This document shows positions 34,301-54,999 of a stretch of 55,738 nt of DNA, one piece after another. A model generated the notes under the pieces. It saw only the letters and a list, made by a program, of their open reading frames with translations. It did not search any database and had not been told where the DNA came from. This stretch comes from an uncultured Dehalococcoidia bacterium (lineage in GTDB: Bacteria; Chloroflexota; Dehalococcoidia; SZUA-161), in NCBI GenBank assembly GCA_964524995.1, contig CAZGDV010000004.1, positions 1 through 55,738 on the forward strand, read 5' to 3'. Both the position numbers and the translations under genes were made by a program. Position 1 is the first letter of the stretch. Every line of letters begins with the position of its first letter.

Positions 34301-34316
34301 AACGGAGGTGCCACAG

Positions 34317-34904
34317 GTGGGGCCCCTTGGCAGCGATACCATGCCACCGAGGAGGCAACCGGCGAGCGCTGTATTCCTGGACAGAGACGGCACGATAATG
34401 CGGGACGTGCACTACTGCCGCGATGTGAGGAATGTCGAGATACTGCCTGGTGTCGCACAGGGAATCAAGTTGCTCAACGACAGCGGGTTCAGGGTGGTTG
34501 TGGCAACGAACCAGTCCGGCATCGGCCGTGGTCTTCTCGATGAAGAGGTACTGAGGAGAATACACCAGCGCATGCTGCTGCGGCTGCTCTGGGAGGGTGC
34601 CATAGTCGATGCGATCTACCACTGCCCTCATGGTCCAGACGATAGCTGCGAATGCAGGAAGCCGAGGGCAGGGCTCCTCCGGCGGGCGGCGCAGGACCTA
34701 GACCTGGATCTCGAGAGGTCGTTCATGGTCGGCGACAGCCTGAGGGACATCGAGGCCGGGCGGGAGGCCGGTTGCCGAACGGCGATCGTGTGTTCCGACC
34801 CATACGCCTGGGAGGACCAGGGGGCGAGACCCGACTTTATCGGACACAGTCTCCTCGATGTGGCCGTGTGGATCATAGGGGCCAGGGTAGCGGGCTCAGC
34901 CTGA
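34317..34904 (+). CDS. gmhB: D,D-heptose 1,7-bisphosphate phosphatase (HAD IIIA)
   Basis: AVFLDRDGTI, VATNQSGIGRG, YHCPH....C.CRKP, SFMVGD...DIEAG..AG; GTG 34317 after GGAGG. Confidence 0.92.
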   Translation: MGPLGSDTMPPRRQPASAVFLDRDGTIMRDVHYCRDVRNVEILPGVAQGIKLLNDSGFRVVVATNQSGIGRGLLDEEVLRRIHQRMLLRLLWEGAIVDAIYHCPHGPDDSCECRKPRAGLLRRAAQDLDLDLERSFMVGDSLRDIEAGREAGCRTAIVCSDPYAWEDQGARPDFIGHSLLDVAVWIIGARVAGSA

Positions 34905-38500: not shown

Positions 38501-38658
38501 ACGGCGGTGAGCCCAAAGAACCCCAGGTAGACCCACAAAGGTGGCCAACCTACAAGAGGCCTGGCCCGGAGCCACACAAGTGCTGAGCTGCATGCCGTGC
38601 GTGCAGCCGCGAGACGGTGCGGGCTTCTTCGCTTCTTCCTTGATTTCTTGCGGCTCAC
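35512..38658 (-). CDS. GT-C (TMTC/PMT-like) membrane glycosyltransferase fused to CBM4/9-like and ConA-like extracellular modules (1048 aa)
   Basis: RFQPL....Y..YH......H..N..LLF.L...LF.......AIAW, E.....P TMTC-like pattern over about 11 TM helices; C-terminal NLL.N..F motifs and a Y..LNGEL beta-rich segment. Confidence 0.72.
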   Translation of the reverse strand: MSRKKSRKKRRSPHRLAAARTACSSALVWLRARPLVGWPPLWVYLGFFGLTAVLYAALLSDLPRADHLMFMSNFREGGMSMADLKRSLFFEFFGSDKRFQPLAFPVVYLQWKVFGTNFLMYHLTTIGVHALNATLLFLLVRRLAPSALFSLFIAALFLTAATHLDAIAWTVHTYVLLQVSCILLAVLFLLEWQRSSRPALLYLSYLFIFIQMFFTEAGVVFPLLLFAGTLVLWRHNRATMGDAVRRSAILTIGVYAVFLLAFGVFAILDPRSMPGELLSSGNILRAIWGTIIHFGSSALLHNTVYSSEIVVDDMVYFVPITWPSLSPTSGTAIGLVIGNTVAVIAVVTLLLQLRVPPSGRRSLVLLVALGGLAFSFLLLLVRPTSYAISQSRYAYIPTLTVVSLLAILLAQRFRPDLAGLAGKNDPGLGRFRKVAIVLAIGCLVVLSMGRTMTGAQEVASARADTNGVYYAAREFVAEPENAGARLFVSASTYPSHEKLAWGADIIPDLFLSSQAVTKNLSEATHVLREGPIIEQAPMRSMPRIEFAGRGGNGEFYQDLSDQASELAGRLVTLNVTARAALCEAVAPFIWSDVGGYVMGDFFTAAEELECREVTIAIPQDAKAVRVGLAFTRTTLAWVSELDFREVTSNTGNLLPNSDLKRWSAGGGPFTDAGDMWADGWLIDLRGESEMAVSRVVEQSGETIALAEYSHDDESYLVCNVPNPDSLIGHTATLSAMLRADAGKAVRLSMEWDREGGAWSDFHPGDGNWHLMSLAATVPEDGVDFLTLSVVLDRDCSVQIKSPTLMTTLSRPGNLLENPTFQGWDEDSLPVSAGPVAMEVADGWWQSVEGESALSSWVVEVAPPAATANPDDFSVRFGLMPTGWPGEPLEMFGFTSATRENPEGWFLRLLYGVGADSPQAGYPRLELGHREGTSEQVVFCSRPLPTETRMNHYVVGRDHGVFYVILNGELVEKRADNTGEAFRDMELELGEVYSYVYPYYQHPVPYFAYTHVQVGESEMSVADKPLGHVFGEISFNVYGFMPYHVSLGW

Positions 38659-41600: not shown

Positions 41601-44598
41601 GCCCGCTCGTCTTGATAGTGAGTGTGCCGCCATGTGCCTCCGAGAATTCGAAGGAGCCGACAGACTGCCAAGGCATGTTCGCCTCTTGATCCGGGGCAAC
41701 AGTCATGTCGCTGAAGACGACCCAGTCCGGTATGAGTGGACGTTGGCTGGCGGCGACTATCTGTTCAAGGCCCAGCGTTGCGAGTTCACTGTGGTCCAGC
41801 CCATCCTCGTAGACCGAAAACACCTCAGCGGCGGATAATGCTTGGTTGAACACGGCGAGACTGTCCACGCTCCCCAGGAATTGATCGTCCTCCCCCCAGA
41901 AGGATCTCCCAACCTGCGCAAAGTCGATGAATTGCCCGGAAAACTGCATCGTGTCGACCTGATATGACACATCGAGCACCCCATTAAGGTAGGCCGACAT
42001 GGTACCCGCTGCCTCGTCAAAGACGACCGTTACGTGTGTCCAGTCATCGGCCGGCACCTCACCGAGCGAAGAGCGGCGATTCTCTCCAGCCTGGACCATC
42101 AGCCTGCCGCAGCCACCGTCCTCGAACCCGATGGCGAACATATCACCCTCGCCCCCCGGAGATACAAACGGGCTGAGCTGCCCCTCATCGTCGATTATGA
42201 GTTTCCCTGCATGACCGTCGTCGTCAAGCGCGAGGATGGTGGCGTCCCGATCAGTCTCTTGTGGCCGCACCCAGAAGCTAACCGTGAGTTCGTCGCTGAG
42301 GTAGAGGCCAAAGACGTTATTTCGTCCCCTGGCAGTCGCTTGGCCTTCGCCGCCCTCGAACGCCACTGCGGAGTCTGTGCTTCCCTCAGACCTGAGAGAG
42401 TCGTCCAACTGGAGTGAGAGATGGCGGTTCCATCCGGACAGGTCCCTCGTCAGTGAGCCGGAGTCATCGCCCATCGTGTAGTAGGCCTCGAGCGAGGCCA
42501 TGAAGGAGGTAGGCTCGTCCAGGTGAACGAGAAGGTAGTCCGAGTTGATGTCTTCGGTGACGAAGTAGGTCGTCAGATGGTGCTGTAGCGGTCGTGCTTT
42601 ACGGCTCTTGTCGACCAGGGCGTAGTAGTGTATCTGGTCGGCTGACACCACCCCCTCAGCAATCAGCCCCTCCCGCAGTTCCCTCAGCCTCGCGAGCCGG
42701 TAGTTGAAGTTCTTGATCCCCACTGCGTACTCGATTTTCTCTCCGTCTCTCACATCCTCATAGTGGTACTCATGAAGGAAAGCGTCGTCAGGCAACCCGT
42801 CGACGATCAACTCCCAGTCTGACACAAAGAGAGCATACTGCGGCCTGATTAGAGAATGGGCAGTCTGCCAGTCTCCGTTCTCTATCGGGACCACTTTCGT
42901 TTCCTGCAGATACGAACCGAGCACGAATCCCCGCCGCCCCATGTACTCATCGTGCATAGGGAATGTCTCAGCCCCGTTCTGCCACTCATTATTCAGGTTG
43001 TAGAACACGATGTCGCCATAAGAAGTCATCTCCCCGACCTCGCTGGCGACTGCGAACCCCTCGGCAAGGGCATCTCGCGAGACGTGAACACCCCACGTCC
43101 TCTCGGGACTGATCTCATTGGGGTACTCGCCGAGATAGGAGGTTGTGTTAGCCAGGAAGGCGACTACAGGAATGATGACTATCAGACCCGTCACGCCGAA
43201 CTTGAACATGCTCTTCTCGAAGATACCGGCGCCAGTGGCGTCGTGCCGAGACTGCCCCGCAAGATGACGCCGGAAGGAACCGAAGGCGTTTGTCCAGAAG
43301 AGGGCAATTGCGAGGCCAAGAGCGAGCCCCACGAACGTAAGGGCATGCAGCGGATGGTATACCTCCAGAGCTTTGGGCATGACGAGGCGCCAGATGAGAA
43401 AGCTTGCCGCGAGCCACAAGAGCACATTGCTCGGGCTGAAGCCACGTTCGAACCTCAGCATGCCCCTGGGATTGTCGTAGTTCTCCAGGAACTTGACCAG
43501 TACCACCATTGCCAACAGTGCCCAGATGCCCAGTCCGAATGCCTCGGAGTAGTAGCGGTTCACGGTGCCGAATATCTCCGTGGGAAAGAATCCTGGTCTC
43601 ATGGCGGCGCCAGTCCCTAGCGTCCTGTTCCAGACTACGCTCCAGGTGTCGTGCCAGGCAGCGGAGAAGCCTCCCACCGACCACATCAACTGCAGGAAAT
43701 GGAGCCCGAAGGCGGACACGGGCGCGGCGATGAACAGCAGGATCCTCTTTAATGGAAATGGTTTCGCACGACTGAGCACGTAGTACCCGACGATGAATAC
43801 CTGCAGGAAGAGGCTGTACTCGAAGGAGTTGCACGCCTGTAGGAAGACGAGAAGCCATACCCCTGCCAAGGCCAGGCGTCTGAGACGTGGCCTCCGGAGC
43901 ACCCTCTCGTCACGATGCGCGGCGGCGAAGAGGGCCATCGCGGCTGATACGAGGAATATGTCATATGTCTGCGGGGACAGGCCGTCCATGTGCTCCATGA
44001 AGACCACGGACAAGCCTGCGACTGCCGCTCCAATAAGTGCGGCCGGCCTGCTGAAGAAGTAGCTGAAGAACCTGTAGAACAGAAGCAGTGCGCAAGCGCT
44101 CAGGAACACCGAGAAGGCTTCGCACGTATAGCGGCCCCCACCCAGCGCCAGTATGACCCCATTGACCATTCCATACAGTGGAGGCGAATGTGTGTAATAC
44201 TCATCGAGGAAGTAGGCAGAGCCAACCACCCCGGGGTGATAGTAGGTGAGGAACCCATGCTCTATGAAGCCCTCGTCAGCGAAATGGCGGGCCGCCGACA
44301 TGGTCTGGGCATCGCCCGGTGCCCAGCCACTCCATCTCAGCTCATACCCTGCCCGCACCAGGCCGAAGACCAGGATGAAAAGCGCGAAGCTCACCACCAG
44401 CACGTTGCAGACGCGCTTGCTGTTCGCTGCCACCAACGTAAGCCCTTTGAGTCCCACGTCTCCCCGCCATGGAACAGGCCACCCTCTGGCGACGGTTCGC
44501 TCAAAGAAGGATGCGGTGAGGCTGGCAAACACCACCGAAGGTAGTATCAGCCTCCGTACAAGACCCCTGCGAAGCTCTATGGGCATGGGTGAGAGCAT
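38665..44598 (-). CDS. Giant GT-C (ArnT/PMT-like) membrane protein fused to a LamG domain and five tandem ConA/lectin-like repeats (1977 aa)
   Basis: N-terminal GDAQT..AARHF...YYTHSPPL loop plus many TM helices; LamG pattern LTVSFWVRP...WTHVTVVFD...YLNG..F.GS.D...VFN.ALS..EV; five ~190-aa repeats. Confidence 0.78.
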   Translation of the reverse strand: MLSPMPIELRRGLVRRLILPSVVFASLTASFFERTVARGWPVPWRGDVGLKGLTLVAANSKRVCNVLVVSFALFILVFGLVRAGYELRWSGWAPGDAQTMSAARHFADEGFIEHGFLTYYHPGVVGSAYFLDEYYTHSPPLYGMVNGVILALGGGRYTCEAFSVFLSACALLLFYRFFSYFFSRPAALIGAAVAGLSVVFMEHMDGLSPQTYDIFLVSAAMALFAAAHRDERVLRRPRLRRLALAGVWLLVFLQACNSFEYSLFLQVFIVGYYVLSRAKPFPLKRILLFIAAPVSAFGLHFLQLMWSVGGFSAAWHDTWSVVWNRTLGTGAAMRPGFFPTEIFGTVNRYYSEAFGLGIWALLAMVVLVKFLENYDNPRGMLRFERGFSPSNVLLWLAASFLIWRLVMPKALEVYHPLHALTFVGLALGLAIALFWTNAFGSFRRHLAGQSRHDATGAGIFEKSMFKFGVTGLIVIIPVVAFLANTTSYLGEYPNEISPERTWGVHVSRDALAEGFAVASEVGEMTSYGDIVFYNLNNEWQNGAETFPMHDEYMGRRGFVLGSYLQETKVVPIENGDWQTAHSLIRPQYALFVSDWELIVDGLPDDAFLHEYHYEDVRDGEKIEYAVGIKNFNYRLARLRELREGLIAEGVVSADQIHYYALVDKSRKARPLQHHLTTYFVTEDINSDYLLVHLDEPTSFMASLEAYYTMGDDSGSLTRDLSGWNRHLSLQLDDSLRSEGSTDSAVAFEGGEGQATARGRNNVFGLYLSDELTVSFWVRPQETDRDATILALDDDGHAGKLIIDDEGQLSPFVSPGGEGDMFAIGFEDGGCGRLMVQAGENRRSSLGEVPADDWTHVTVVFDEAAGTMSAYLNGVLDVSYQVDTMQFSGQFIDFAQVGRSFWGEDDQFLGSVDSLAVFNQALSAAEVFSVYEDGLDHSELATLGLEQIVAASQRPLIPDWVVFSDMTVAPDQEANMPWQSVGSFEFSEAHGGTLTIKTSGLNPGHYKVSEPRFDDRRGVTAEVRMKLVGAATTGYQGACFTLQDGSREGKLTFYPDRITLRDQNDEVYTHSMSTGDGFHTYRLCIVNGQLALYVDGSLLETVQLKKVVTLKDIAFGDLSREPGENIHAEIDYIIYSTDAAEPPAPRPATLAASASTESKWHSSSAPAILGRADPNGIWTLGGEFNVLDCADDVVTLQTNGNNVGYFVHFDGGLDNSIGSSAEITLRMLDGPNVERSSFLFSIQDGTRDGNLIVEPDRIVIRDGTEDSTIHEMDTTGGFHTYRLALIRNALKAFVDDELVADVVLKDYSSVRAIVWGDVCPDDKVNVCAQVKRVAYTASVTDSPTSDLVPLEPPTGAVGAVDGMPHVTKISDMRALPNTEQVSPWQAEGILGEAGVAEGMLTIATSGANTAYYSHTDDRFDNSIGATVEARIRVETLGQSCQRACVAVRDGLREAKMVLYPDGVSISDGDDLRETYAMDTTGGFHLYRMAVRGDTAHLYVDGELAVSAVLSNRSDAKGIVFGDLSPVDGENMRVTVDYVAYTVDGALSPDGTPVPGISTSPSVQEPDGVGAVEPSDAGTEPPSEWNCVMEMDVSPETVDEHWSAGGSFEVNQASDGVLVVRTSASDIGYIECRDDRLDNSVGTTVELTLRIVDASYDGYQGACFYVQDGTHEAKITFYPDRISIRDQNDERATFHMDTTDAFHVYRLAVIEDVLRVYVDSELAAKATLGNRIAGRSLLLGDLSQEAGENIHALVDYLAYSSTGAYAPDGSLLGPEIVESGADSVLPSGWTGYADMSVPPWQQDDRWIVRGNFDIRRTSGGVLTLKSSWSDTAWLECQEDDLDNLRGVTVEVRLKVVQAASHGHQGSCLSVQDGEREAKLTFYPDRVSIRDQNQEKSIHRMDTTDAFHTYRLTMRDDILHVYIDGFPRAIGLLNGVSTKGIYLGDLSAVEGENMHAEVDYLLYSVENTYPPSDLPSPDGW
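38690..41727 (-). repeat. Five tandem ~190-aa repeats (approximate bounds)
   Basis: Shared consensus DM...P...W...G....T...G.T.E.R......QG.C..VQDG.RE.K..FYPDR..IRD....MDT...FH.YRL......YVD......GDLS...GEN....DY..YS; DNA similarity visible, e.g. 38926-38980 vs 39540-39591 vs 41409-41460. Confidence 0.9.
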
Positions 44599-44671: not shown

Positions 44672-45283
44672 TCAAATACGTGCTGCCAGGAACTCGTCTA
44701 GTTCTGCGCTGACAACGACATCATACAGACGAAAGAAGTCGTCCATGGCATTCCGAAGCTCTGCCGCTATAACTCGTCCCGTCTCCGTATAGAATCTGTC
44801 GTAGAAGAAGCCGATGTAGTTTCTTGCTTTCCTCATCGCTCCTTGGACTTGCTTGCCGTCGTACACCATGCGATAGCCGAACACCCGGGCGAAGCCGAGC
44901 GGCCCGACCGACTGGAGCTTGTCGGCGTCCCAGAGTACCTCGGCCTCCCTGGTGAGCTTGGGCAAATCGTTGGCATGCTGAGATATCGCGTAGCAGACCT
45001 GCTCGATGAAGGCCTCAGGCGCCCGTATGCTCTCCAGGAAGGCTCCGGCCTCCCGAGCCCCGATCGCGGCATGCTCTGCGCCCACGCCTTTGGCTATGTC
45101 ATGGAGATACGCCGAGATGACGCTTATCTCTTCATCAGCACCTTCCCTTCTCGCCAGCCACCTCGATATCTCCACCGTCAGCTCTACGTGCTCCATAGTG
45201 TGATCGAAATCCTGGTCTTTGTGCCGCTCGCGAGCGTACTCGCGGATTCTCTGGACTTGCTCCAGGCTAAGAACGAACGGCAT
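44672..45283 (-). CDS. HD-domain phosphohydrolase
   Basis: H..EHV...AYLHDIAK...H...GA...DADKL motifs; ATG 45283 after GGAGG (the track extension to 45454 overlaps the upstream gene). Confidence 0.88.
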   Translation of the reverse strand: MPFVLSLEQVQRIREYARERHKDQDFDHTMEHVELTVEISRWLARREGADEEISVISAYLHDIAKGVGAEHAAIGAREAGAFLESIRAPEAFIEQVCYAISQHANDLPKLTREAEVLWDADKLQSVGPLGFARVFGYRMVYDGKQVQGAMRKARNYIGFFYDRFYTETGRVIAAELRNAMDDFFRLYDVVVSAELDEFLAARI

Positions 45284-46757
45284 CGGCCTCCCTCTGTGCG
45301 AATTCTCGGCCCTTTTCGGGCGAATGCCTGAACACATCCTGGCGCAGACTCCGCGCGTATATCTTGAGGGACTCAGAAAACGTCGTCTTCGTGACATAGA
45401 TCTTGCGCCGGAAGGCATACATCTTCGCAACGTGATACGAGAGCGTGAAGCCAATGTTCATGGGAAGGCGTAGAAGGAGCCTGGTGATCAGATGGCGGGT
45501 CCACGGGAATACCACTGCCACCGGCCCGAGCACCGCGAGATTGCGCTGCAGGTTCCTCTCTTTAGCGGTGAAACACGTCAAAGGTGTCTCGAACTGATAT
45601 GACGTGTGCATCCTCTCATACTCAGGAGAGTACGCGCCCATGGCGATGGTCTTGTCGCCCAGTTCAGTTCCGGGATAGGGATGGAACTGCAGGAACTCGG
45701 CCCAGTCCACGCGACATTGCAGAGACAGGTTCAAGGACTCCAGGTCATTGGCAAACGTTGTGCCCGGCAGCCCGATGATGCAGTTGGTGAACGTGTAGAT
45801 GCCGTACTTCTCGCAGAGCCGGTGCGAGTCGACAATCTGCTCGTTAGTCATCCTCCTGTTGAGCAGACTCTCCCGGATTTGCTGATTGCCGGCCTCGATG
45901 GACATGCTGATGGTCCGGCAACCGGCCTCCTTCATCAGCTTGACTATGTCCTCCGTCAGAAGATCACAGCGTGTCAGGGCGAAGAACGGCAGACCAATCC
46001 TCCTCCTGTACTTCCTGGAGAATTCCTCTAGCCACTCGTCAGCCCGGAAGGCGAAGACATCATCGTAGAACTTCACTGTGGACAGGGGCCACTTCGCCAT
46101 GACCCTCTGTATGTCCTCGACCACATGATCGACGGAGTGCCGTCGAACGACCTTGCCCTTGCCCTTGTAGATCTCGCGCCATCTTGTATTGAAGCAGTAT
46201 GAACACCGATAAGGGCAGCCCCGGGACGTTATGAACGACTTCAAGAGCGATTGGCCCATCATTGGCGTAGCACTGTACAGCAGATCGTAGTCCGGGAACG
46301 GCAGGCTGTCGAGGTCCTCAACCAGATTGCGTACAGTCGAAGAGTCGTGGTTGCGAGTGACGATGTTGGGGATCCCATCGACCTCGCGACCGGAGTCCAG
46401 GGCGCGGAGAACATCCACGATAGCGCCTTCGCCCTCACCCATGCAGATCGCATCCAGAGTCGTGTGGATCAGATCCCCGGGGTAGAAGGTGGGATGCGGC
46501 CCACCCATGATTGTGAAGACGTCCGGGAACTCCTGCTTGATCCGGTTGTTGGCCCTCAAGTAATGCTTCGCTTCCCCGGTGGACGAACTGTACGCTACGA
46601 CGTCCGGCCTGACCTCGGCGACACTGTCAACAGGATCGCTCCGGTTCAACTCACACAGAAACGTCTCGTGCCCTTCTTTCCTGGCCATGGCCGAGATGAC
46701 GGCTGGACCCAGGGGAGCTATGAAGTTCTCGCTCTTGAAGACGAAGAGCACCCTCAT
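45267..46757 (-). CDS. Cobalamin-binding radical SAM enzyme (class B type)
   Basis: N-terminal B12-binding fold (PDVVAYS, IMGGPHPT), TSRGCPYRCSYC CxxxCxxC motif, FYDD.F, SIEAG, FHPYPGT. Confidence 0.92.
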   Translation of the reverse strand: MRVLFVFKSENFIAPLGPAVISAMARKEGHETFLCELNRSDPVDSVAEVRPDVVAYSSSTGEAKHYLRANNRIKQEFPDVFTIMGGPHPTFYPGDLIHTTLDAICMGEGEGAIVDVLRALDSGREVDGIPNIVTRNHDSSTVRNLVEDLDSLPFPDYDLLYSATPMMGQSLLKSFITSRGCPYRCSYCFNTRWREIYKGKGKVVRRHSVDHVVEDIQRVMAKWPLSTVKFYDDVFAFRADEWLEEFSRKYRRRIGLPFFALTRCDLLTEDIVKLMKEAGCRTISMSIEAGNQQIRESLLNRRMTNEQIVDSHRLCEKYGIYTFTNCIIGLPGTTFANDLESLNLSLQCRVDWAEFLQFHPYPGTELGDKTIAMGAYSPEYERMHTSYQFETPLTCFTAKERNLQRNLAVLGPVAVVFPWTRHLITRLLLRLPMNIGFTLSYHVAKMYAFRRKIYVTKTTFSESLKIYARSLRQDVFRHSPEKGREFAQREADAVRS

Positions 46758-47695
46758 CTGGACACCTGCTCCGCAAGAGCGCCGACCCAGGAAGCAAGCC
46801 GGTTGGTGATATTGTCGACGCTCAGTCCGATAGTTGCTCGCAGGTACTCCCGGCTTCCATACTCACGAACGAACTGATCCGGCATGCCAACCCGCTTGAA
46901 CCGGCAATTCAGGCCCCTCTCGGCAATTAGCTCCGCTATCGCACTGCCTATTCCCCCCGTGATGAAGTGCTCCTCGAGCGTTATGACGTTTTTCGACCCG
47001 TTGATAACGTCCGAGAGCAGTTCGGCGTTGAGAGGCTTGATCCTGTAGAGATCGACGACGCCCACACTGATGGACTGTTCAGACAGGAGCTTGGCTGCAT
47101 CGAGAGCCGTCGCCACCATACGGCCGGTGGCAATGATGCAGAGGTCGGTGCCCGTACTCAGTACGCTCGCGCCGGCAGACAAGTCTTCGACGGTGTTTGT
47201 GTGGATGAGCGGCTCGCCGGTCCGATCGAGTCTTACGTAGACGGGGCCGGGCGTCTCGTAGGCCATGAATGCGAATGTGGCAGCCGTTCTATTGTCCGAA
47301 GGGCTCAGGACGGTCATTCCAGGGAGCTGCCGCATCATGGCGATGTCCTCGGTTCCATGATGGGTAGGCCCGAGGATAGAGTAGTCCATTCCCGCGCCGA
47401 CGCCTATCATCTTGACGGGCAAGTTCTGACAACACACGTCCACCCTGACCTGCTCATAGCAGCGCATCGTGACAAATGGCACTATCGCGTAGGTATAGAC
47501 TATCTTGCCACTCATCGCTAGGCCCGCCGCGACTCCTATCATGTTCTCCTCGGCGATACCGACGTTTATGCAGCGCTGTGGAAGGTCCCTCCTCAGGGCA
47601 TCGAGCACCAGAGCCCCCGTATCAGAGGTCAGCACGACGACCCGCTCGTCTCGCGCCACGGTCTCGTATAGTGAAACAAAGAAAGCATCTCTCAT
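46754..47695 (-). CDS. Transketolase-like protein, C-terminal (Pyr + C) subunit
   Basis: NVGIAEENM.G.AAGLA..G, R.YEQVR.D, GPTHH..ED, GP.YVRL, LEEH...GG.GS; ATGA overlaps on both sides. Confidence 0.93.
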   Translation of the reverse strand: MRDAFFVSLYETVARDERVVVLTSDTGALVLDALRRDLPQRCINVGIAEENMIGVAAGLAMSGKIVYTYAIVPFVTMRCYEQVRVDVCCQNLPVKMIGVGAGMDYSILGPTHHGTEDIAMMRQLPGMTVLSPSDNRTAATFAFMAYETPGPVYVRLDRTGEPLIHTNTVEDLSAGASVLSTGTDLCIIATGRMVATALDAAKLLSEQSISVGVVDLYRIKPLNAELLSDVINGSKNVITLEEHFITGGIGSAIAELIAERGLNCRFKRVGMPDQFVREYGSREYLRATIGLSVDNITNRLASWVGALAEQVSR

Positions 47696-48513
47696 CTCGC
47701 CAACTCCTTTCTAGCCTGCTCCAACTCCTCCCTGTTCGGCGTCCTGTAATGCCAGATCGGCTTGCTCTCCATGAAGGAAACGCCCTTCCCCTTCGTGGTT
47801 CGGGCAAGCACGGCAAGCGGCTTTCCGGAACTGCGGTCCCGGATGTCGGCAAGCGCCGCCTGAATGCTATCGAATGAATGTCCATCTGCGGTCCGCACTT
47901 CCCACCCGAAGGCCTCGAACTTCGCCTCGAGGGGCTCCAAAGCCAGTGCCTCCTCTGTGAAGTCTATGGCCTGGAGAGTGTTGCGGTCGATGATGGCCAC
48001 GAGATTATCAAGACGTTGGTGAGCAGCAAACATCACGGCCTCCCAAACGGAGCCTTCCTGGCACTCACCATCGCCAAGAAGGGCAACAGTTATGTAGTCG
48101 TCGCCATCCATCTTGGCGCACAGGGCCATTCCTGCCGCTATCGAGAGACCGTGTCCCAGCGAGCCGGTGAATGCTTCCACACCCGGCACGTTCGACTCGG
48201 CGTGAGCGCCTAACCGGCTTCCCAGCTTACAGAACGACCGCAGTTCGCCCACCGGGAAGAAGCCGAGGTCCGCCAGTGCCGGGTAAAGGGCCAGACAGGC
48301 TTGACCCTTGCTGAGCACGAACCTGTCACGACCCTTCCATTGCTCATCCTCGGGATTGAACCGCAGGACTCCACCATGGTATAGGGCAACGAGCAATTCA
48401 GTGCACGAGAACGATGGAGCCAGATGCGCACCGGCAAGCCCCACAGTCATCTCCACGATCTCATTGCGTATCCAGTTTGCCTTCCTCTCCAATTCTGCCG
48501 CTTCTAACATCAC
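47692..48513 (-). CDS. Transketolase-like protein, N-terminal (PP) subunit
   Basis: RDRFVLSKG, TGSLGHGL, ThDP motif GDGE.QEGS.WEA...IDRN, T.KGKGVSFME...WHY. Confidence 0.93.
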   Translation of the reverse strand: MMLEAAELERKANWIRNEIVEMTVGLAGAHLAPSFSCTELLVALYHGGVLRFNPEDEQWKGRDRFVLSKGQACLALYPALADLGFFPVGELRSFCKLGSRLGAHAESNVPGVEAFTGSLGHGLSIAAGMALCAKMDGDDYITVALLGDGECQEGSVWEAVMFAAHQRLDNLVAIIDRNTLQAIDFTEEALALEPLEAKFEAFGWEVRTADGHSFDSIQAALADIRDRSSGKPLAVLARTTKGKGVSFMESKPIWHYRTPNREELEQARKELAR

Positions 48514-48538
48514 GACTATCCCCTTTCATTCAAAATGG

Positions 48539-49336
48539 CTATGCGCTCATGGCGACTATCTTGTCAGCTCGGAGTACACGGACCCGAACGAATAAGCGAC
48601 CAAGATCATATGCCGCGGACAGCACTGACCCCAGGGTCAGTATCTTGGACCGGCCGTGCATCCTCTTGCCAAGCCGCACCGGCACCTCGGCGAATGTGAA
48701 ACCTGCACGTGCCCCCCTTACCAGGCATTCCGTCTGATACGTGAAACCTGTGGCCACGGGCCTGACCGCGTCGAGAACCTGGCGTCTATAGATGACATTC
48801 CCCGTTGTATAGCTGAACGTCGTGCCGAACAGCAGGTTCACTACATGCAGATAGAGCTTCGAGACGAAGCGCCGCTGTCGGCTGCGCACCTCTCTATTCG
48901 TCACGTACGGCACTATTATGTCAACTTGATCGAGAAGCGGCAGGTACCTCAGCAACTCCTCCGGCTCGTTCTCGGCATCCCCGGGGAACCAGGTAATTGC
49001 CGCCTTCGAGGAAGCTCGAATGCCGTCCAAGAAGCAGGTACCTATGCCCGCCGGTTTGCTGTGCTCCAGCACGTGAATCCGGGGCTCGCTCTTGGCAAAG
49101 GTGTTTGCGATGGCACCGGTCTTGTCGGTGCTACCATCATTCACCACGATGATCTCCCAATCCACTCCGTCCCGGCCAAGGACGCCGATCAGCCCGTCCA
49201 GTGCCAGGGGCAGGTTGCTTTCTTCGTTGAGCGCCGGTACTATCACGGTCAACGACTTCGAAGGTGGCGGGACCGGATTCGTGTCCTCACCTGTGGTGAA
49301 GAGCAGAACTGCTGTGCTATCGGCCTGGCTCTGCAT
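48539..49336 (-). CDS. GT2 glycosyltransferase, polyprenol-phosphate glycosyltransferase (DPM1/Ppm1-like)
   Basis: VIVPALNEE.NL, EIIVVNDGSTD.T, FPGDA (DXD variant), GF.YQTE.L.R, F.EVPV...R..G.SK. Confidence 0.87.
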   Translation of the reverse strand: MQSQADSTAVLLFTTGEDTNPVPPPSKSLTVIVPALNEESNLPLALDGLIGVLGRDGVDWEIIVVNDGSTDKTGAIANTFAKSEPRIHVLEHSKPAGIGTCFLDGIRASSKAAITWFPGDAENEPEELLRYLPLLDQVDIIVPYVTNREVRSRQRRFVSKLYLHVVNLLFGTTFSYTTGNVIYRRQVLDAVRPVATGFTYQTECLVRGARAGFTFAEVPVRLGKRMHGRSKILTLGSVLSAAYDLGRLFVRVRVLRADKIVAMSA

Positions 49337-49355
49337 GGTCGGTGTTCATTCTCCT

Positions 49356-50486
49356 TCAGTTTCTTAGTGCGCGGGTCACGATAGCTCCAACAAATGAGGC
49401 AATCGCCGGTGCTGCGGTCAATCCAGGGGATTCGATGCCAATGAGATTGACGAAACTGGGTAGTCCTCTTTCCACTTCGTCTCTGATAACGAAGTCTCTG
49501 AAGACATCATCGGGACCCTGCAACGTGGGACGTATGCCGGCCATCTCAGGCTCAAGGTCTTCAGCCTCCACAAACGGTAGAAACTCCACCACCGACTGGT
49601 AAAACAGCTCCCCCAGCCCGCAGTCGACGGAGTAGTCCTCGTCGTGAACATAGCGACTGCTTGGCCCGAGAAGGACTCTGCCGTCCAGCGTAGGCGTCGC
49701 GTGTATGCCTAGACCAGCGCCCGACGACCCCGGCAGCGGGTAGACGGGTCTCCCGATCAATCTGCCCTTCTGTGAACTGAGCCTGAAGTACTCGCCCTTA
49801 CACATGTGGATTCTGTATCCACAGTCATCTATGTCCAGACCCGCCGCCTCAGCCAGCTCGTGGCTCGCCAACCCCGCACAGTTCACCAGCACTTTCGTGT
49901 CGAAGGAGAAGCTGTCCCGGTCGTCCAAATGCACAGTGAAGCCGCCATTTCTGCGCTCAACGGCTTGAACCTTCGACCGATACACAACCTTCCCGCCCCT
50001 GCACCTCACTTTGGCCACGAAATGCCTCATCAGCGCGAAGACGTCGACTACGCCTGTTGACGGTGAAAAGAGGCCAGCCAAGGCAGTCACGTTTGGCTCC
50101 AGCCTCTTCACTTCCTGTCTCGACAGCAGCTCAAGGTCATCTACACCATTGCTCCTGCCCCTGTCGTGCAGTTCCTCCAGTTCAGCTACACGCTGCTGAT
50201 CAGTAACCACTATGATCTTGCCGGTCCTCTTGTGCGGGAGGTCATGCTTGCTGCACAGCCTGTACAGCATCTCTCTCCCTTCCACACAGGTCCTGCCCTT
50301 CAAGGAATCGGCCGGGTAGTATATCCCGGCATGGATAACCTGGCTGTTCCTGCTGCTGGTGCCAAGGCCATAGCCATCGTTCTTCTCCAGCACTACCACG
50401 ATTCTGTCATCCCTCGCCACCTCGGCTGCCACGGCGAGCCCAATGACGCCAGCCCCTACAACCGCTACATCAACGTGGGTAGTCAT
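49356..50486 (-). CDS. FAD-dependent oxidoreductase, L-2-hydroxyglutarate oxidase (LhgO) family
   Basis: DVAVVGAGVIG, EK..G.G.GTSSRNS.VIHAGIYY, KGEY, LG.H.T, GIRP, GIESPGLT; ATG 50486 (track 50516). Confidence 0.9.
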   Translation of the reverse strand: MTTHVDVAVVGAGVIGLAVAAEVARDDRIVVVLEKNDGYGLGTSSRNSQVIHAGIYYPADSLKGRTCVEGREMLYRLCSKHDLPHKRTGKIIVVTDQQRVAELEELHDRGRSNGVDDLELLSRQEVKRLEPNVTALAGLFSPSTGVVDVFALMRHFVAKVRCRGGKVVYRSKVQAVERRNGGFTVHLDDRDSFSFDTKVLVNCAGLASHELAEAAGLDIDDCGYRIHMCKGEYFRLSSQKGRLIGRPVYPLPGSSGAGLGIHATPTLDGRVLLGPSSRYVHDEDYSVDCGLGELFYQSVVEFLPFVEAEDLEPEMAGIRPTLQGPDDVFRDFVIRDEVERGLPSFVNLIGIESPGLTAAPAIASFVGAIVTRALRN

Positions 50487-50527
50487 ACTGTCGTTCGCCT
50501 CACGCACATGCGGCACGCTCCGAGCGC

Positions 50528-51538
50528 CTAGGCGATTCGCTCAAGCTGCAGCATCTTCACGTTGTAGTACCGTGGATCGTCCATCGGATCGGGTACCTTG
50601 CCTCCCTCGAACGCCTCGCAGAGCGACCGGATCGCGTCCTCTATCGTGTGCCTGGGCCGCCACCCAAGCTCTCTGAGTATCTTCTCGGAGGAGATGTGGT
50701 ACGATCGGGGATCGTCTGTCGCTTCCTGAACGACATCGATTTCGGCACGGCCCACTATTTCTCTGACCATCTTGGCGAGTTGGCTCACCGTGTGGTTCTC
50801 ACAGCCAGCGTTGAAGACCTTGCCGGCAACCAGTTCATCGGGCAGTTCGACAAGCTGGGCATACAGATCAGTTATGTCCTGGATGTTTATGTTCGGGCGC
50901 TTCTGTGTCCCTCCGATTACTTTGATGCGTCCGTTATTCACCGCGTGGTTGGTCAGGATATTGACGATGAGGTCCAATCGGAGACGAGGAGAATACCCAC
51001 AGACGGTAGCGGAGCGAATCACGACCGGCACGAAATCAGGCGATTGTCGGCTGAACAGCACCTCTTCGCAGAGGGCCTTGTATTTCGAGTAGTCTGTAAG
51101 GGGCTCCAGTGTCATGTCTTCGGTGACGTTCTCGACTTCCTTGATGCCGTACACGCTCGAGGTCGAGGCGTAGATGAAGCGCTTCACGCCGCTGTTCCTG
51201 CACACATCGACGAGGCCGAAGAAGGCATCATAGTTGATGGACTTGCCGAGGGCAGGATCGAGCTCAAAGCTGGGGTCGTTGGATATGCAAGCGAGATGGA
51301 GCACGCAGTCGCTCCCGGGAATTGCCTTCTCCAGCAAACCTATGTCCCTTATGTCTCCCTTTATCTGCACAAGTCTTGGATGATTCCGGACCTCGGCAAG
51401 CGCCTCTTCCCCGTACAGGTACAGGTCCAGCACTCTGACCTGATGTCCCCTTGCCAGGAGCTTCGGTACGAGGACACTGCCGACGTATCCCGCCCCCCCG
51501 GTCACCAATACATTCTGTGTTGCCGAAGTCATGGTCAT
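50528..51538 (-). CDS. NAD-dependent nucleotide-sugar epimerase/dehydratase (extended SDR)
   Basis: VLVTGGAGYVGS, HLA.ISND, YASTSSVYG, catalytic YSKYK; start 51538 or 51532. Confidence 0.92.
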   Translation of the reverse strand: MTMTSATQNVLVTGGAGYVGSVLVPKLLARGHQVRVLDLYLYGEEALAEVRNHPRLVQIKGDIRDIGLLEKAIPGSDCVLHLACISNDPSFELDPALGKSINYDAFFGLVDVCRNSGVKRFIYASTSSVYGIKEVENVTEDMTLEPLTDYSKYKALCEEVLFSRQSPDFVPVVIRSATVCGYSPRLRLDLIVNILTNHAVNNGRIKVIGGTQKRPNINIQDITDLYAQLVELPDELVAGKVFNAGCENHTVSQLAKMVREIVGRAEIDVVQEATDDPRSYHISSEKILRELGWRPRHTIEDAIRSLCEAFEGGKVPDPMDDPRYYNVKMLQLERIA

Positions 51539-51621
51539 CCGCCTTCCTCTCGTTCTCACTCGTTGCTTCATTAACTGTTGACCGTATGCGCAAGCCGTAA
51601 GTCTCAACCGCGCTTGTGCGC

Positions 51622-53157
51622 CTATTTCAGTAGCGTCGTTACGTACCTGGACAGCTGAACAGGGTCAACAACCGTTCTATTGCCGACAATGCGTATCGCG
51701 AGGGCGCCAACTGCGTTCCCAATGAAGCCAACTAGCTCGGGCGGAAAGCCAGCAGCCACACAAGGCGCTGTCACGGCGAAGTAGGCATCGCCAGCGCCTA
51801 TCCTGTCCACTGCCTCACGTGAGAACACCGGTACTTCCAGGAATCCACCGCTGTTGGCGTAGACCAGGGAACCACGATGCCCCCTGGTGACAACCGCCCG
51901 GTGGCAGCGCAATTCGCTAGCTATCCCGCACACGAGATCCTCCAGCGGGCTGCAATTGTCGTGAGTCGCGAGCCTAGCCTCCGTCTCATCTATGCACACG
52001 TAGTCCGCGCGATCATACCTGGTCACCAGATTGAAGCCCAAGTTTGCCGAATTGGTCTGAACATTGATGGCCAGGAACCTCGATTCATCGCAGAGTGCTG
52101 CGATTATCCGATCGTCTATGAATCCGTGGCCGTAGTCCGCGACAACGACCAAGTCATAGTCGGGGAGGCGCGACCGTAGATAGCAGGCCGCCTCGTGACT
52201 CACGATGTCCGGCAGCAGGTCAGTGCCAATGAACGAGACCTCGAACATCTTCCGTAACAGGTCGACTTCGACGAAGCGTCGTTTGACAGGCGTACAGGTG
52301 TCCGGGCGGCAAAACAACGTGGGCACAACGTTCGGTCTGAGGTGCCCACGTACGAAGCCTTCACGGGAGTCCTCACCACCCAGCACGGTGACCAGTTCCA
52401 CATCATCGCAGAACCCAGCAACGCAATTGGCTATGGCAAGGATGCCTCCCGCGAAGACCTCTTCATATAGGTACCTGGCCGGGATTAGTATCTCCTTGGG
52501 GGATTTCCCCATTGGGCTGCAGTAGTGGTACTCATCTATGATCGTGTCACCTATTACCAGTACCTTGAGCCCTTTGAGAGATTGAAGAAGATCGATGATT
52601 CCCTGTGGAGTGAATGAGCTGCGAAACTCGGTCAGGAAACCCCTCGCTTCCTCCGAGAAGACGTCGAAATGGTTATTCAGCAAACTTGTTGAACTGAAGG
52701 TTATGTCATCTGTGAAGTGAATGCGACCGCCAACGGACTCAACGGCTTGCTCCTCATCTACTATCTTGCCGGTGAGATCATTCTTGGCGTCCGCATACTC
52801 ATTGCCCTTCGCGTACACATCCGGCCTGAGCTTCAGTATTGTGTCAACCGCTATGGGCCCCTCGTTCAACGCCACATAGTCGACACACTCCAGTGCGGCG
52901 AGGGACTCGACTCTGAGTTGCTGGCCGAAGACCGGCCTGCCGGGGCCCTTGCCCACGTGTTCGTCCCTGGTAACCGTGACAACCAAGACATCCCCCTGTC
53001 GCTTGGCTGATTCGAGATGTCTTATGTGCCCCGGATGAAGCAAATCGAAGACTCCGTGACACTGCACCACGGCCTTACCTTGCTTCCTCAGGTCTTCGGC
53101 AATGGCACAGACCTCATCCAGCGACTTGAACTTCGAACCGTTGATGCCCTGCGTCAA
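51622..53157 (-). CDS. Bifunctional nucleotidyltransferase/PfkB kinase (HldE/RfaE-like, reversed domain order)
   Basis: N-terminal GVFDLLHPGH..KGPGRP, C-terminal VIGD.IID.Y...DYGHG...DRIGAGDAYFA. Confidence 0.9.
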   Translation of the reverse strand: MTQGINGSKFKSLDEVCAIAEDLRKQGKAVVQCHGVFDLLHPGHIRHLESAKRQGDVLVVTVTRDEHVGKGPGRPVFGQQLRVESLAALECVDYVALNEGPIAVDTILKLRPDVYAKGNEYADAKNDLTGKIVDEEQAVESVGGRIHFTDDITFSSTSLLNNHFDVFSEEARGFLTEFRSSFTPQGIIDLLQSLKGLKVLVIGDTIIDEYHYCSPMGKSPKEILIPARYLYEEVFAGGILAIANCVAGFCDDVELVTVLGGEDSREGFVRGHLRPNVVPTLFCRPDTCTPVKRRFVEVDLLRKMFEVSFIGTDLLPDIVSHEAACYLRSRLPDYDLVVVADYGHGFIDDRIIAALCDESRFLAINVQTNSANLGFNLVTRYDRADYVCIDETEARLATHDNCSPLEDLVCGIASELRCHRAVVTRGHRGSLVYANSGGFLEVPVFSREAVDRIGAGDAYFAVTAPCVAAGFPPELVGFIGNAVGALAIRIVGNRTVVDPVQLSRYVTTLLK

Positions 53158-54173
53158 TTCGTCACCTCACCCAGGGCAAGAACCTTGTTCCTGCCAAGGT
53201 ATGTGAACCATTCCTTCGTTGCCTCTTCGATTCTGTCGGGTGTCCAGACCGGCGCGTCTCTCCAGTATTCGATGTTGCGCAGCATCTCCCTGACGCCGTC
53301 GTCAAAGCTGACCTCGGGTTCCCAGCCTACCAGCCTACGTATCTTGGATATGTCCACGTGAGTACAGTCTGGCTCTCCCGGCCTCTTGGGAACGTAGACC
53401 ACATCTCCACCCAACAACTCGACCAAGCGATTAATGCTGTATGTGCCCCCACTGCCCACGTTGAATACCTCGTTCTGAAGGCCCGACTCCGCCGCCATCA
53501 CAAGCGCCCGAATGGCATCGGTGACATACACGAAATCGCGAGTCTGCGTGCCATCTCCCACGACGCTAAAGGGCTGATTGTGCAGCTTCTGTGCCAGAAA
53601 CACGCCGAACACAGCACCATAGGTGCCGGAAGTCCGCGAACGGGGCCCATAGACGTTCGCGAGGCGTAGCGAGACAACTGGAAGACCGTAGACCTTGCCC
53701 CAATGCATGACGCATTCCTCGCCGACGTACTTGGTCAGCGCATACGGGTACTCCGGCCGAATCGGTGCGGTCTCGGGTGTCGGGAACACATCGGGCACCC
53801 CGTAGCACGACCCCGACGCACTGTAGACGAACCGGGCCACTTCAGCGCGACGTGATGCCTCAAGCACGTTGACTGTGCCAGTCACGTTAGAGCGGTAGTA
53901 CTCCAGCGGCTGCTTGATCGAGGGGACGATGTCGGCCAGCGCCGCCACGTGGAAGACCCAGTCAACCCCCTCGAACAGGGGTTCTATGGTCTCGTACTCT
54001 GCGATCTCCACATTGCAGAAGTTGATCTGAGCGGTACGGGCCAGGTGAGATAGGTTGTCGAGGCGACCGGTTGAGAGGTTGTCCAGAATGACGACGTCAT
54101 GGCCACTGTTCGCCAATTGCTCAACCAAGTGGCTACCGATGAATCCAGCCCCTCCGGTTACTAGTGTCCTCAT
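53154..54173 (-). CDS. NAD-dependent nucleotide-sugar epimerase/dehydratase (extended SDR)
   Basis: LVTGGAGFIGSHL, DNLSTG, H.AALADIVPS, catalytic YALTK, NVYGPR, GDGTQTRDFVYV.D, RPGEP. Confidence 0.94.
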   Translation of the reverse strand: MRTLVTGGAGFIGSHLVEQLANSGHDVVILDNLSTGRLDNLSHLARTAQINFCNVEIAEYETIEPLFEGVDWVFHVAALADIVPSIKQPLEYYRSNVTGTVNVLEASRRAEVARFVYSASGSCYGVPDVFPTPETAPIRPEYPYALTKYVGEECVMHWGKVYGLPVVSLRLANVYGPRSRTSGTYGAVFGVFLAQKLHNQPFSVVGDGTQTRDFVYVTDAIRALVMAAESGLQNEVFNVGSGGTYSINRLVELLGGDVVYVPKRPGEPDCTHVDISKIRRLVGWEPEVSFDDGVREMLRNIEYWRDAPVWTPDRIEEATKEWFTYLGRNKVLALGEVTN

Positions 54174-54808
54174 TCCGAACAGATGCGTTCAAGAGTGGTT
54201 GTTCTCAAACACTTGGTGATAAGGTGACATAGCAGGAGGTGAACATCCTCGACCTGTTCCATACAGTGGCACGGTACGGTAATGCATATGTCGGCCATAT
54301 CCTTCAGCTCTCCACCATCGAATCCGGTGAAGCCAATCGTCGTTGCTCCGCTTGCCGCCGCTGCGTCCACCGCCAGCAGTACATTCCTGGAGTTGCCACT
54401 TCCGCTTATCGCAACCAGCACGTCGCCTGGTGAGATCCAGGCAACCATAGACTGGACGAATATCTGATCGTAGGACTCGTCATTGCTCCAGGCCGTAACA
54501 AGCGCGATGTTCTCACACAGGGACCTGGACTTGAACGGGGGCTTGCTTGGTACCATTGCACCCTTGCAGAGGTCCGAGGCAAAGTGGATGGAGGTAGCCG
54601 CCGATCCTCCGTTGCCGCAGGTGAATACCGTTTGCTGCTTCCAGCGCGCTTCCTCCAGGCGGTGGATCACCTGGCCGACCCTATCTATTGGCAACCGCCG
54701 TATCACGTCAACGACGTCGGCCAGATATGAACACACCCCCTCGGCAACACACGAACTGCTTGTGACGTATGTGGAGATGCTCTCCACAATAGAGCTTTCA
54801 GTGGTCAC
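54170..54808 (-). CDS. gmhA: SIS-domain phosphosugar isomerase (GmhA-like)
   Basis: CGNGGSAA..HF..D, TA.SND..Y...F, GDVL.AISGSGNS.NV..A, G..GG.L; GTG 54808 after AAGGA (track start 54883). Confidence 0.88.
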   Translation of the reverse strand: MTTESSIVESISTYVTSSSCVAEGVCSYLADVVDVIRRLPIDRVGQVIHRLEEARWKQQTVFTCGNGGSAATSIHFASDLCKGAMVPSKPPFKSRSLCENIALVTAWSNDESYDQIFVQSMVAWISPGDVLVAISGSGNSRNVLLAVDAAAASGATTIGFTGFDGGELKDMADICITVPCHCMEQVEDVHLLLCHLITKCLRTTTLERICSE

Positions 54809-54915: not shown

Positions 54916-54999
54916 AGTCTAGACTCGTACGCTGAAAAGCGGGTTAACACACTGCATACGGAATAAGATGACCATGAAAAACGGATTAGAATGAGTTAA
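54916..54999 (-). promoter_or_regulatory. 4+2 array of 11-bp direct repeats plus -10 box (copy 3)
   Basis: Minus strand from 54999: ttaactcattc/taatccgtttt/tcatggtcatc/ttattccgtat, 8-nt gap, ttaacccgctt/ttcagcgtacg, TAGACT at 54921-54916 (offset 78). Confidence 0.8.

Follow-up and report, generated by a model that had tools for sequence, protein, structure and literature searches.

We analysed a 55,738-nt stretch of DNA from an uncultured Dehalococcoidia bacterium (hereafter the window), which is contig C4 of a 3.0-Mb genome that is 88% complete and whose relatives, according to homologue searches, belong to Dehalococcoidia/Chloroflexota. It carries a minus-strand operon in which a heptose-type sugar-activation module stands together with a split transketolase (TK), two short-chain dehydrogenases/reductases (SDRs) and an LhgO-family flavoprotein, and which may direct the synthesis of an unusual envelope sugar. 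The features discussed here, with the names used below, are the following:

54916–54999, minus strand: TTAAC-type repeats with a spacing of ~11 bp before the operon, a candidate promoter region (sequence reading)
54170–54808, minus strand: SIS/GmhA-like isomerase of a variant subfamily (Pfam SIS_2, NCBIfam gmhA)
53154–54173, minus strand: SDR-1, a GalE-like extended SDR (Pfam Epimerase, 210 bits)
51622–53157, minus strand: the HldE-like fusion, 511 amino acids (aa), with a cytidylyltransferase-like N-terminal and a PfkB kinase C-terminal domain (CTP_transf_like and PfkB)
50528–~51538, minus strand: SDR-2, an extended SDR and Cj1427-like putative nucleoside diphosphate (NDP)-heptose C4-dehydrogenase (PDB sequence and fold matches)
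49356–50516, minus strand: the flavoprotein, a flavin adenine dinucleotide (FAD) oxidoreductase of the LhgO/L2HGDH family (Pfam DAO, NCBIfam LhgO)
48539–49336, minus strand: GT2, 265 aa, a probable polyprenyl-phosphate sugar synthase (Pfam Glycos_transf_2)
47692–48513, minus strand: TKN, N-terminal subunit of a TK-like thiamine diphosphate (ThDP) enzyme (Transketolase_N)
46754–47695, minus strand: TKC, C-terminal subunit of the same TK-like ThDP enzyme (Transket_pyr and Transketolase_C)
45267–46757, minus strand: B12-binding radical S-adenosylmethionine (SAM) enzyme, class B (Pfam B12-binding and Radical_SAM)
44672–45283, minus strand: HD-domain phosphohydrolase (Pfam HD)
38665–44598, minus strand: 1977-aa membrane protein with LamG and a lectin-like tail, candidate GT-C (Laminin_G_3)
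35512–38658, minus strand: 1048-aa polytopic membrane protein, candidate second GT-C (topology)
34245–34904, plus strand: GmhB-type heptose 1,7-bisphosphate 7-phosphatase (NCBIfam NF006506), with the true start probably downstream of 34245
32867–34300, plus strand: Polysacc_synt-family flippase (Pfam PF01943)

A first-pass annotation of this DNA had described eight genes, from the isomerase to TKC, as one minus-strand operon at 46754–54808 with much 4-nt coupling. All eight are present at these positions and could be assigned by Pfam and NCBIfam, and we counted 4-nt overlaps at four junctions (SIS/SDR-1, SDR-1/fusion, TKN/TKC and TKC/B12-radical SAM). The proposed end at 46754 does not hold, as the run of genes continues to 35512; the HD hydrolase gene overlaps the B12-radical SAM gene by 17 nt. 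The phosphatase missing from the earlier gene list is the GmhB-type HAD protein, encoded on the plus strand 12 kb from the operon. A MarR-type regulator gene (Pfam) is divergent from the operon. In the scanned region, terminator-like and promoter sites inside the operon did not exceed the level of shuffled sequence.

Conservation of the gene set was analysed in 82 loci around homologues of the fusion, whose open reading frames (ORFs) were compared with the window proteins and clustered; 37 of these loci, with flanks of 7 kb or more in both directions, form a well-flanked subset. The fusion gene is most constantly accompanied by SDR-1 (71 of 82 loci, median identity 61%), which usually lies just upstream of it. 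The SIS isomerase is found in 50 loci by ORF clustering (49 by best match to the window protein), a subunit of the TKC/E1-beta type in 35, SDR-2 in 32 (~61% identity), GT2 in 31, E1-alpha in 26, TKN in 23 and the B12-radical SAM enzyme in 20. Two families that are absent from the window recur as well, namely a SPASM radical SAM enzyme (38/82 loci, L004-L085) and a DegT aminotransferase (30/82). These genes have not come together by chance, as the same families occur in the same order around HldE-like homologues in dozens of genomes, and one metagenome contig, L125, has the whole gene order of the window with proteins that are 50–72% identical.

The fusion itself has more than 7900 homologues with 50–70% identity across many phyla, including Chloroflexota, Methylomirabilota, Nitrospirota, Omnitrophota, Elusimicrobiota, Planctomycetota, Bdellovibrionota and Peregrinibacteria, and the reversed HldE-like gene marks the cassette in more than 15 phyla. 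It is also found in archaea (L010 from Nitrosotalea and L067 from Nanoarchaeota), where the copies are 51–62% identical to the bacterial proteins, which implies a horizontal spread of the cassette between domains.

A two-subunit ThDP enzyme is encoded in 29 of the 37 well-flanked loci and in none of the other 8. It is of the TK type in 14 loci and of the E1 type (pyruvate dehydrogenase E1, PDH-E1) in 16, with both in one locus (Fisher p = 6e-4, indicative only, like the p-values that follow), and it co-occurs with GT2 (p = 0.04). When the two labels were mapped onto a quick maximum-likelihood tree of the fusion protein, they were interspersed: well-supported branches force at least nine changes of the TK label and at least six of the E1 label, and the window (TK) and L006 (E1) form a sister pair that has 100% support. 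Since the type of ThDP enzyme switches repeatedly on the HldE-like tree, we favor a tailoring role for it over the supply of a precursor. The pattern fits a ThDP step that is a downstream, exchangeable C2 transfer, with the same activation enzyme accompanied by TK, E1 or neither. Moreover, the product of an E1 enzyme would be a 1-deoxy-ketose, which is not isomerisable to an aldose, so that the ThDP enzyme is unlikely to make the ketose phosphate used by the isomerase.

The loci also differ in how a carbonyl could be generated. Of the 19 well-flanked loci that lack SDR-2, 16 have a SPASM radical SAM gene, compared with 7 of the 18 that contain SDR-2; the two are thus anticorrelated (p = 0.007), which suggests that SDR-2 and the SPASM enzyme are alternative makers of the carbonyl needed by the ThDP enzyme or, in other loci, by DegT. 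Together with the occurrence of DegT aminotransferases in 16 of the 37 well-flanked loci, this anticorrelation suggests a keto intermediate.

The activation enzymes resemble those of heptose pathways and form a lineage of their own. The best solved structures for the isomerase are phosphoheptose isomerases; its score with the NCBIfam model gmhA (TIGR00441) is 112 bits, below the cut-off of 209. The active-site and metal-binding set of GmhA, which we take to be His61, Glu65, Gln172 and His180 in E. coli numbering, reads His, Asp, Glu, His in the operon protein, i.e., both histidines are kept, Glu65 is replaced by Asp and Gln172 by Glu. As judged from the alignment, this variant active site is a family trait, because the same signature is common to essentially all of the ~50 cassette-linked SIS proteins; the exception is a canonical-type SIS protein in L069, which keeps Glu and Gln. 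In the fusion, the domain order is opposite to that of HldE, with the transferase at the N-terminus and the kinase at the C-terminus. It reaches 141 bits with the HldE equivalog (cut-off 521), and its best NCBIfam matches are rfaE domain II (104 bits, cut-off 181.5) and domain I (92 bits, cut-off 345). Among solved structures, it matches HldC-type transferases and the heptose-7-phosphate kinase HldA best. The phosphatase comes closest to a curated family, with 173.9 bits for NF006506, just under the cut-off of 178, and histidinol-phosphatase-type HAD-IIIA domain models score well above theirs. No GT9 heptosyltransferase was found in the genome.

The genome encodes a second, more canonical GmhA-like protein (193 bits, TIGR00441) on contig C51 (locus L128, 4474–14031). 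This gene belongs to a NeuB-type glycan cluster unrelated to the operon, with NeuB, a CTP_transf_3 cytidylyltransferase, two GFO/IDH/MocA oxidoreductases, a xylose-isomerase-like TIM barrel, a TylF methyltransferase, a sulfotransferase and a GT2 protein.

Three Transketolase_N matches were detected in the genome, a full-length TK (489 bits), a second split TK and the operon copy, which is the weakest (~135 bits). A housekeeping function of the operon copy was rejected, as the full-length TK and the second split TK are encoded elsewhere in the genome. The second split TK (contig C24, locus L002, 204 bits) has one in-frame TAG and may represent a pseudogene, a frameshift or an assembly error. 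For TKN, the best structure is 6YAK, a split TK (210 bits), and TKN and TKC score 256 and 178 bits with the TK equivalog, which has a cut-off of 488.

The full-length TK of the same genome served as the reference for an alignment of the operon TK with 15 further cassette-linked pairs. The operon enzyme and the other cassette TKs keep the equivalents of the ThDP, metal and catalytic residues His26, His100, His261, Glu411, His473, Asp155 and Asn185. The GDG...N metal motif and the Arg358 equivalent are likewise kept in the cassette TKs, and TKC also keeps the equivalent of Arg520. The equivalents of His461, Asp469 and Ser385, which hold the sugar-phosphate acceptor in canonical TKs, are gone in all 16 aligned cassette enzymes. 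At the position of His66, the window and its closest orthologue, L125, have Gln (SKGQA) and the other cassette TKs keep His; a family-wide exchange was ruled out on this basis. All cassette TKs share GSLGHG, where the full-length TK has GPLGQG and 6YAK, the one solved split TK, has GSLGQG; this motif may be a signature of the cassette TK subfamily. Taken together, the sequence comparison argues that the operon TK is a tailoring enzyme of the pathway and not an ordinary transketolase.

Cj1427 of Campylobacter jejuni is the closest solved relative of SDR-2, by sequence as well as by fold. The best PDB sequence match is 6VO6/6VO8 (149 bits, E 1.6e-42, full length; next match 105 bits). An AlphaFold model of SDR-2 built on 27 cassette orthologues (pLDDT 89.6) returned the same entries, tied to Cj1427 via the fold-search description, at the top of a Foldseek search (E 7e-28, template-modelling scores 0.84/0.90; next match 9e-24). 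Cj1427 is the Campylobacter guanosine diphosphate (GDP)-heptose C4-dehydrogenase, whose tightly bound reduced nicotinamide adenine dinucleotide (NADH) is re-oxidised by alpha-ketoglutarate to give L-2-hydroxyglutarate (PMC10680097). With the HldD model TIGR02197 (cut-off 274.6), SDR-2 scores 65 bits and SDR-1 116.6 bits, and both score higher on GalE and RmlB models, still below the cut-offs.

The flavoprotein gene starts 11 nt after SDR-2. The protein matches Pfam DAO (219 bits), its next best NCBIfam model after LhgO is the type-2 glycerol-3-phosphate oxidase (178 bits), and its PDB matches include 3DME (280 bits) and Drosophila L2HGDH (166 bits). Among 5.8 billion proteins searched, six close homologues (57–58% identical) were inspected for their gene context, and L006 from the HldE-like scan added a seventh; five of the six, plus L006, lie in or beside the cassette. 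The seven contexts are as follows:

L006: SDR-2 and flavoprotein, with 10 nt between the called ORFs
L122: SDR and flavoprotein with a 1-nt gap, and no ThDP gene within 13 kb of sequence
L123: flippase, SDR-1, fusion, SDR-2, flavoprotein, E1-alpha, E1-beta, GT2
L124: flavoprotein divergent beside SIS, GmhB, fusion, SDR and E1
L125: flippase, SDR-1, fusion, SDR-2, flavoprotein, DegT, GT2, TKN, TKC, B12-radical SAM, HD, HD
L126: SIS, GmhB, fusion, SDR-2, methyltransferase, DegT, flavoprotein, E1, B12-radical SAM, SDR-1
L127: flavoprotein in an unrelated context

SDR-2 and the flavoprotein are directly adjacent in the window, L006, L122, L123 and L125. Because the flavoprotein gene directly follows the Cj1427-like SDR-2 gene, here and in four related loci, its product probably regenerates alpha-ketoglutarate. 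The simplest reading is that a flavoprotein of 2-hydroxy-acid housekeeping has probably been recruited to re-oxidise the L-2-hydroxyglutarate released by SDR-2. The link to sugar genes is limited to operon-type copies of the flavoprotein, and more distant copies are found elsewhere: that the subfamily is always sugar-linked was ruled out by four other Dehalococcoidia contexts and L127, which are not near sugar genes. A metagenome scan with the flavoprotein yielded only two loci and was uninformative. One of these four contexts is that of a paralogue in the same genome: with 54% identity, on contig C110 (L117, 3814–4953), it lies between two NrpR-type regulators, HisF-like and glutamate-synthase-like genes, which is a 2-oxoglutarate-related neighborhood.

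The remaining enzymes of the operon are candidates for the finishing of the sugar. SDR-1 scores below the galE and heptose_epim cut-offs, its best structures are UDP-hexose 4-epimerases and UXS, and by sequence reading it contains SASGSCYG and no TDE dehydratase motif; it may act as an epimerase of the NDP-heptose or as a reductase of the branch carbonyl. For the B12-radical SAM enzyme, the best structure is AprD4 (75 bits), followed by TokK, and orthologues with 63–67% identity occupy the same position in L125 and L126; methylation or rearrangement are possible reactions. An analogy of the B12-radical SAM/HD pair to OxsB/OxsA finds no sequence support, with no match of the former to OxsB at E <= 0.01. 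The best structures for the HD hydrolase are uncharacterised YedJ-like hydrolases, and the protein is conserved only in L125, where two HD genes follow the radical SAM gene, and is absent from the other 82 loci.

For delivery to the envelope, GT2 has its best structures in DPMS, ArnC and GtrB, at only 38–43 bits, and its best NCBIfam models are PgfS, ArnC and AglJ; a hydrophobicity check found no transmembrane segment. The 1977-aa protein has at least seven hydrophobic segments in its first 480 residues, and the 1048-aa protein, for which neither a Pfam match nor a PDB sequence match was found, has ~10 in its first 450. The flippase has ~13 hydrophobic segments, and in L006, L123 and L125 the cassette is headed by a homologue with 52–56% identity. 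In three-component systems, a cytoplasmic GT2 enzyme loads a sugar onto polyprenyl phosphate for an outward-facing GT-C, and the layout of GT2, flippase and two polytopic proteins matches such systems by analogy; that no GT9 heptosyltransferase was found in the genome also fits a lipid-carrier route. Elsewhere in the window, a second TTAAC-type repeat site with ~11-bp spacing is located at 28220–28303, and a 3132-aa ORF lies upstream at 18079–27477 on the plus strand.

Based on these observations we propose, with slightly better than even confidence, that the operon activates a C7 sugar, oxidises it, adds a C2 unit by means of a re-tooled TK and delivers the product via a lipid carrier; we infer the product and all chemical steps. 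The GmhA-like isomerase would convert sedoheptulose 7-phosphate to heptose 7-phosphate, the PfkB domain of the fusion would phosphorylate C1, GmhB would take off the 7-phosphate, and the N-terminal nucleotidyltransferase domain of the fusion would yield an NDP-heptose. SDR-2 would then oxidise C4 to give an NDP-4-keto-heptose, with its bound NADH re-oxidised by alpha-ketoglutarate and L-2-hydroxyglutarate released, and the flavoprotein would return the latter to alpha-ketoglutarate and thereby pull the sugar oxidation forward. The split TK would move a C2 ketol unit onto the sugar carbonyl, leading to a C2-branched or, less likely, chain-extended nine-carbon sugar, which SDR-1 and the B12-radical SAM enzyme would finish by epimerisation or reduction and by methylation or rearrangement. 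GT2 would load the sugar onto polyprenyl phosphate, the Polysacc_synt protein would flip it, and the two large membrane proteins would attach it to an envelope polymer or protein.

The general reading of the first-pass annotation, a heptose-type activation module whose product a dedicated ThDP enzyme remodels into a branched or longer sugar, is thus partly supported by comparative genomics and active-site analysis. A reservation is that the GmhA-like and HldE-like proteins stand apart as their own lineage and reach none of the curated cut-offs; the annotation had also assigned no role to LhgO. We infer a heptose-like sugar from the nearest relatives and the near-canonical GmhB. Of the two functions the annotation had considered for the TK, the supply of a C7/C8 ketose phosphate is disfavored, and branching of an SDR-made 4-keto NDP-heptose gains support because the closest relative of SDR-2 is the heptose C4-dehydrogenase Cj1427. 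A TK acting only as a pentose-phosphate enzyme, which the annotation had named together with a plain ADP-L-glycero-D-manno-heptose product as the finding that would speak against it, is at odds with the separate full-length TK of the genome and the absence of canonical acceptor residues from the operon copy. Its statement that no characterised product is known for this gene combination agrees with the literature searched, in which no such description was found.

Several observations weigh against the proposed pathway. All heptose-type proteins score under their curated cut-offs and the isomerase residues are changed, so that a sugar other than D-glycero-D-manno-heptose may be involved. Ordinary transketolases accept ketones poorly, and the operon TK has Gln at the His66 position. 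SDR-2 is ~32% identical to Cj1427 in the structural alignment, and we know of no sequence marker for the alpha-ketoglutarate ping-pong mechanism. The flavoprotein reaches 245 bits with the LhgO model (NF008726, cut-off 299) over residues 16–287 only, and it belongs to a ~380-aa subfamily whose nearest structure, 3DME, is uncharacterised. Its gene directly precedes the E1 alpha gene in L123 and L126, so that it could supply a 2-oxo-acid donor. The 1048-aa protein is a candidate GT-C by topology, and the locus counts behind the p-values treat related genomes as independent.

The position before E1 alpha, together with a score under the LhgO cut-off and a family that includes type-2 glycerol-3-phosphate oxidases, also underlies an alternative with the same tailoring and other redox roles. 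Here the flavoprotein would make the 2-oxo-acid donor, from glycerate to hydroxypyruvate for TK and from another 2-hydroxy acid for E1, or would oxidise the sugar side chain, in which case the C2 unit would possibly be added at the chain end and not at C4. Hydroxypyruvate is a classic irreversible TK donor. We nevertheless regard this alternative as unlikely, as SDR-2 is the most constant neighbor of the flavoprotein (side by side in five loci), the pair occurs in L122 without a ThDP gene in the 13 kb of sequence, the best curated match of the flavoprotein is LhgO, and the Cj1427 precedent offers a direct source of L-2-hydroxyglutarate. Still less probable, in our view, is that the TK-like enzyme first makes an unusual C7 or C8 ketose phosphate (e.g., octulose 8-phosphate from hexose 6-phosphate), with activation following the pattern of the lincosamide octose route through isomerase, kinase, phosphatase and nucleotidyltransferase. 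That route is an established precedent, and a non-standard ketose phosphate could account for the separate lineage and altered residues of isomerase and fusion; the cassette TKs also keep equivalents of Arg358 and Arg/Lys520, which bind the substrate phosphate in TK and DXS. Against it, the same isomerase and fusion (50–70% identical) occur with TK, with E1 or, in 8 of 37 loci, with no ThDP enzyme, the types switching on the tree, and E1 with a 2-oxo acid would give a 1-deoxy-ketose that an aldose-ketose isomerase could not use. Moreover, the acceptor-site residues His461, Asp469 and Ser385 are lost, GmhB is nearly canonical and the genome has a separate full-length TK.

An ordinary pathway, in which plain NDP-heptose is made and possibly epimerised, a spare TK raises sedoheptulose 7-phosphate and the flavoprotein and radical SAM enzyme are passengers, appears very improbable to us. 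While the operon TK has all cofactor and catalytic residues except for the exchange of His66 to Gln, and its closest solved structure, 6YAK, is an active split TK, a housekeeping TK is encoded elsewhere and the acceptor-site residues are lost. In addition, translational coupling ties the TK genes to the radical SAM gene, the association reappears in different phyla with an E1-type enzyme able to replace TK, and the whole gene order is kept in L125.

The C2-branching pathway can be extended to a bolder proposal that we consider tentative and somewhat doubtful: the cassette would encode a phylogenetically very widespread pathway for heptose-derived sugars with nine carbons and a C2 branch, in which a TK lineage without an acceptor site grafts a ketol onto NDP-4-keto-heptose, and in Chloroflexota the carbonyl would come from a Cj1427-type dehydrogenase with an alpha-ketoglutarate/L-2-hydroxyglutarate/LhgO shuttle replacing the SPASM enzyme of most other versions. 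If this is true, a large share of uncultured bacteria (including Chloroflexota, Omnitrophota, Elusimicrobiota, Planctomycetota, Nitrospirota and Methylomirabilota) and some archaea carry a class of envelope sugars that has never been isolated. It would also mean a new type of transketolase-family reaction, ketol transfer to a nucleotide-sugar carbonyl. The unusual alpha-ketoglutarate-dependent mechanism seen in Cj1427-type dehydrogenases would gain its first physiological partner, and this would explain an "L-2-hydroxyglutarate oxidase" in a sugar operon. The window would be a good entry point for biochemistry, since its proposed oxidation is NAD- and FAD-dependent rather than carried out by a SPASM enzyme and could be reconstituted in air, in contrast to the B12-radical SAM step.

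By the equivalog criteria given above, the operon proteins are not members of the GmhA, HldE, HldD, transketolase or LhgO families. In the literature searched, we found no paper that describes the cassette and no TK-type sugar-branching enzyme, and searches for TK plus heptose or heptose and 2-hydroxyglutarate gave nothing relevant beyond the Campylobacter work. The pathway to ADP-L-glycero-beta-D-manno-heptose (GmhA, HldE or HldA and HldC, GmhB, HldD) provides the closest families and structures for isomerase, kinase, transferase and phosphatase. Unlike this pathway, the operon has a reversed fusion, an isomerase with Glu65 replaced by Asp and Gln172 by Glu, scores far below the cut-offs for all proteins except GmhB, and neither an HldD equivalog nor, in the genome, a GT9 protein.

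ThDP-dependent C2 branching of 4-keto nucleotide sugars is carried out by YerE (yersiniose) and PDH-E1-like pairs such as AviB1/AviB2. The operon would resemble them in that a ThDP-bound C2 carbanion is proposed to add to the C4 carbonyl of an NDP-sugar, and sister cassettes carry an E1 alpha/beta pair. YerE is of the acetolactate-synthase type, whereas the operon enzyme is a split transketolase, for which the carried unit would be dihydroxyethyl instead of hydroxyethyl, and the substrate of YerE and AviB is a deoxyhexose where that of the operon would be a heptose. For the oxidation, the coupling of an alpha-ketoglutarate-reducing dehydrogenase to a 2-hydroxyglutarate dehydrogenase is reportedly known from SerA and D2HGDH in Pseudomonas. 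SDR-2 and the flavoprotein would act in a similar way, with an uphill alcohol oxidation paid for by the reduction of alpha-ketoglutarate, which is then regenerated; in contrast, they would use the L-enantiomer in a nucleotide-sugar pathway and are encoded by two translationally adjacent genes. Regarding delivery, ArnC/ArnEF/ArnT, GtrB/GtrA/Gtr and CsbB/GtcA/YfhO likewise have a related GT2, a flippase and large polytopic membrane proteins encoded together, but the operon GT2 lacks transmembrane helices, the flippase is of the Polysacc_synt type and the candidate GT-Cs have long lectin-like tails.

The GDP-heptose route of the C. jejuni capsule proceeds via GmhA, HddA, GmhB and HddC, followed by Cj1427, epimerases and C4-reductases (PMC10680097). 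As in the operon, an isomerase/kinase/phosphatase/nucleotidyltransferase module precedes tailoring by SDRs via a 4-keto intermediate; in contrast to Campylobacter, the operon has a fused kinase/transferase of a separate lineage, a changed isomerase metal site and no cupin epimerases. Moreover, by our reading, the heptose pathway in PMC10680097 does not include three enzymes of the operon (the ThDP enzyme, the B12-radical SAM enzyme and the LhgO-like flavoprotein), and the Campylobacter sugar is passed directly to capsule transferases, where a polyprenyl-phosphate GT2 is proposed for the operon. By analogy, the system would thus work like Campylobacter heptose tailoring combined with ThDP-dependent C2 branching as in YerE and the E1 pairs and with delivery of the ArnC/ArnT type.

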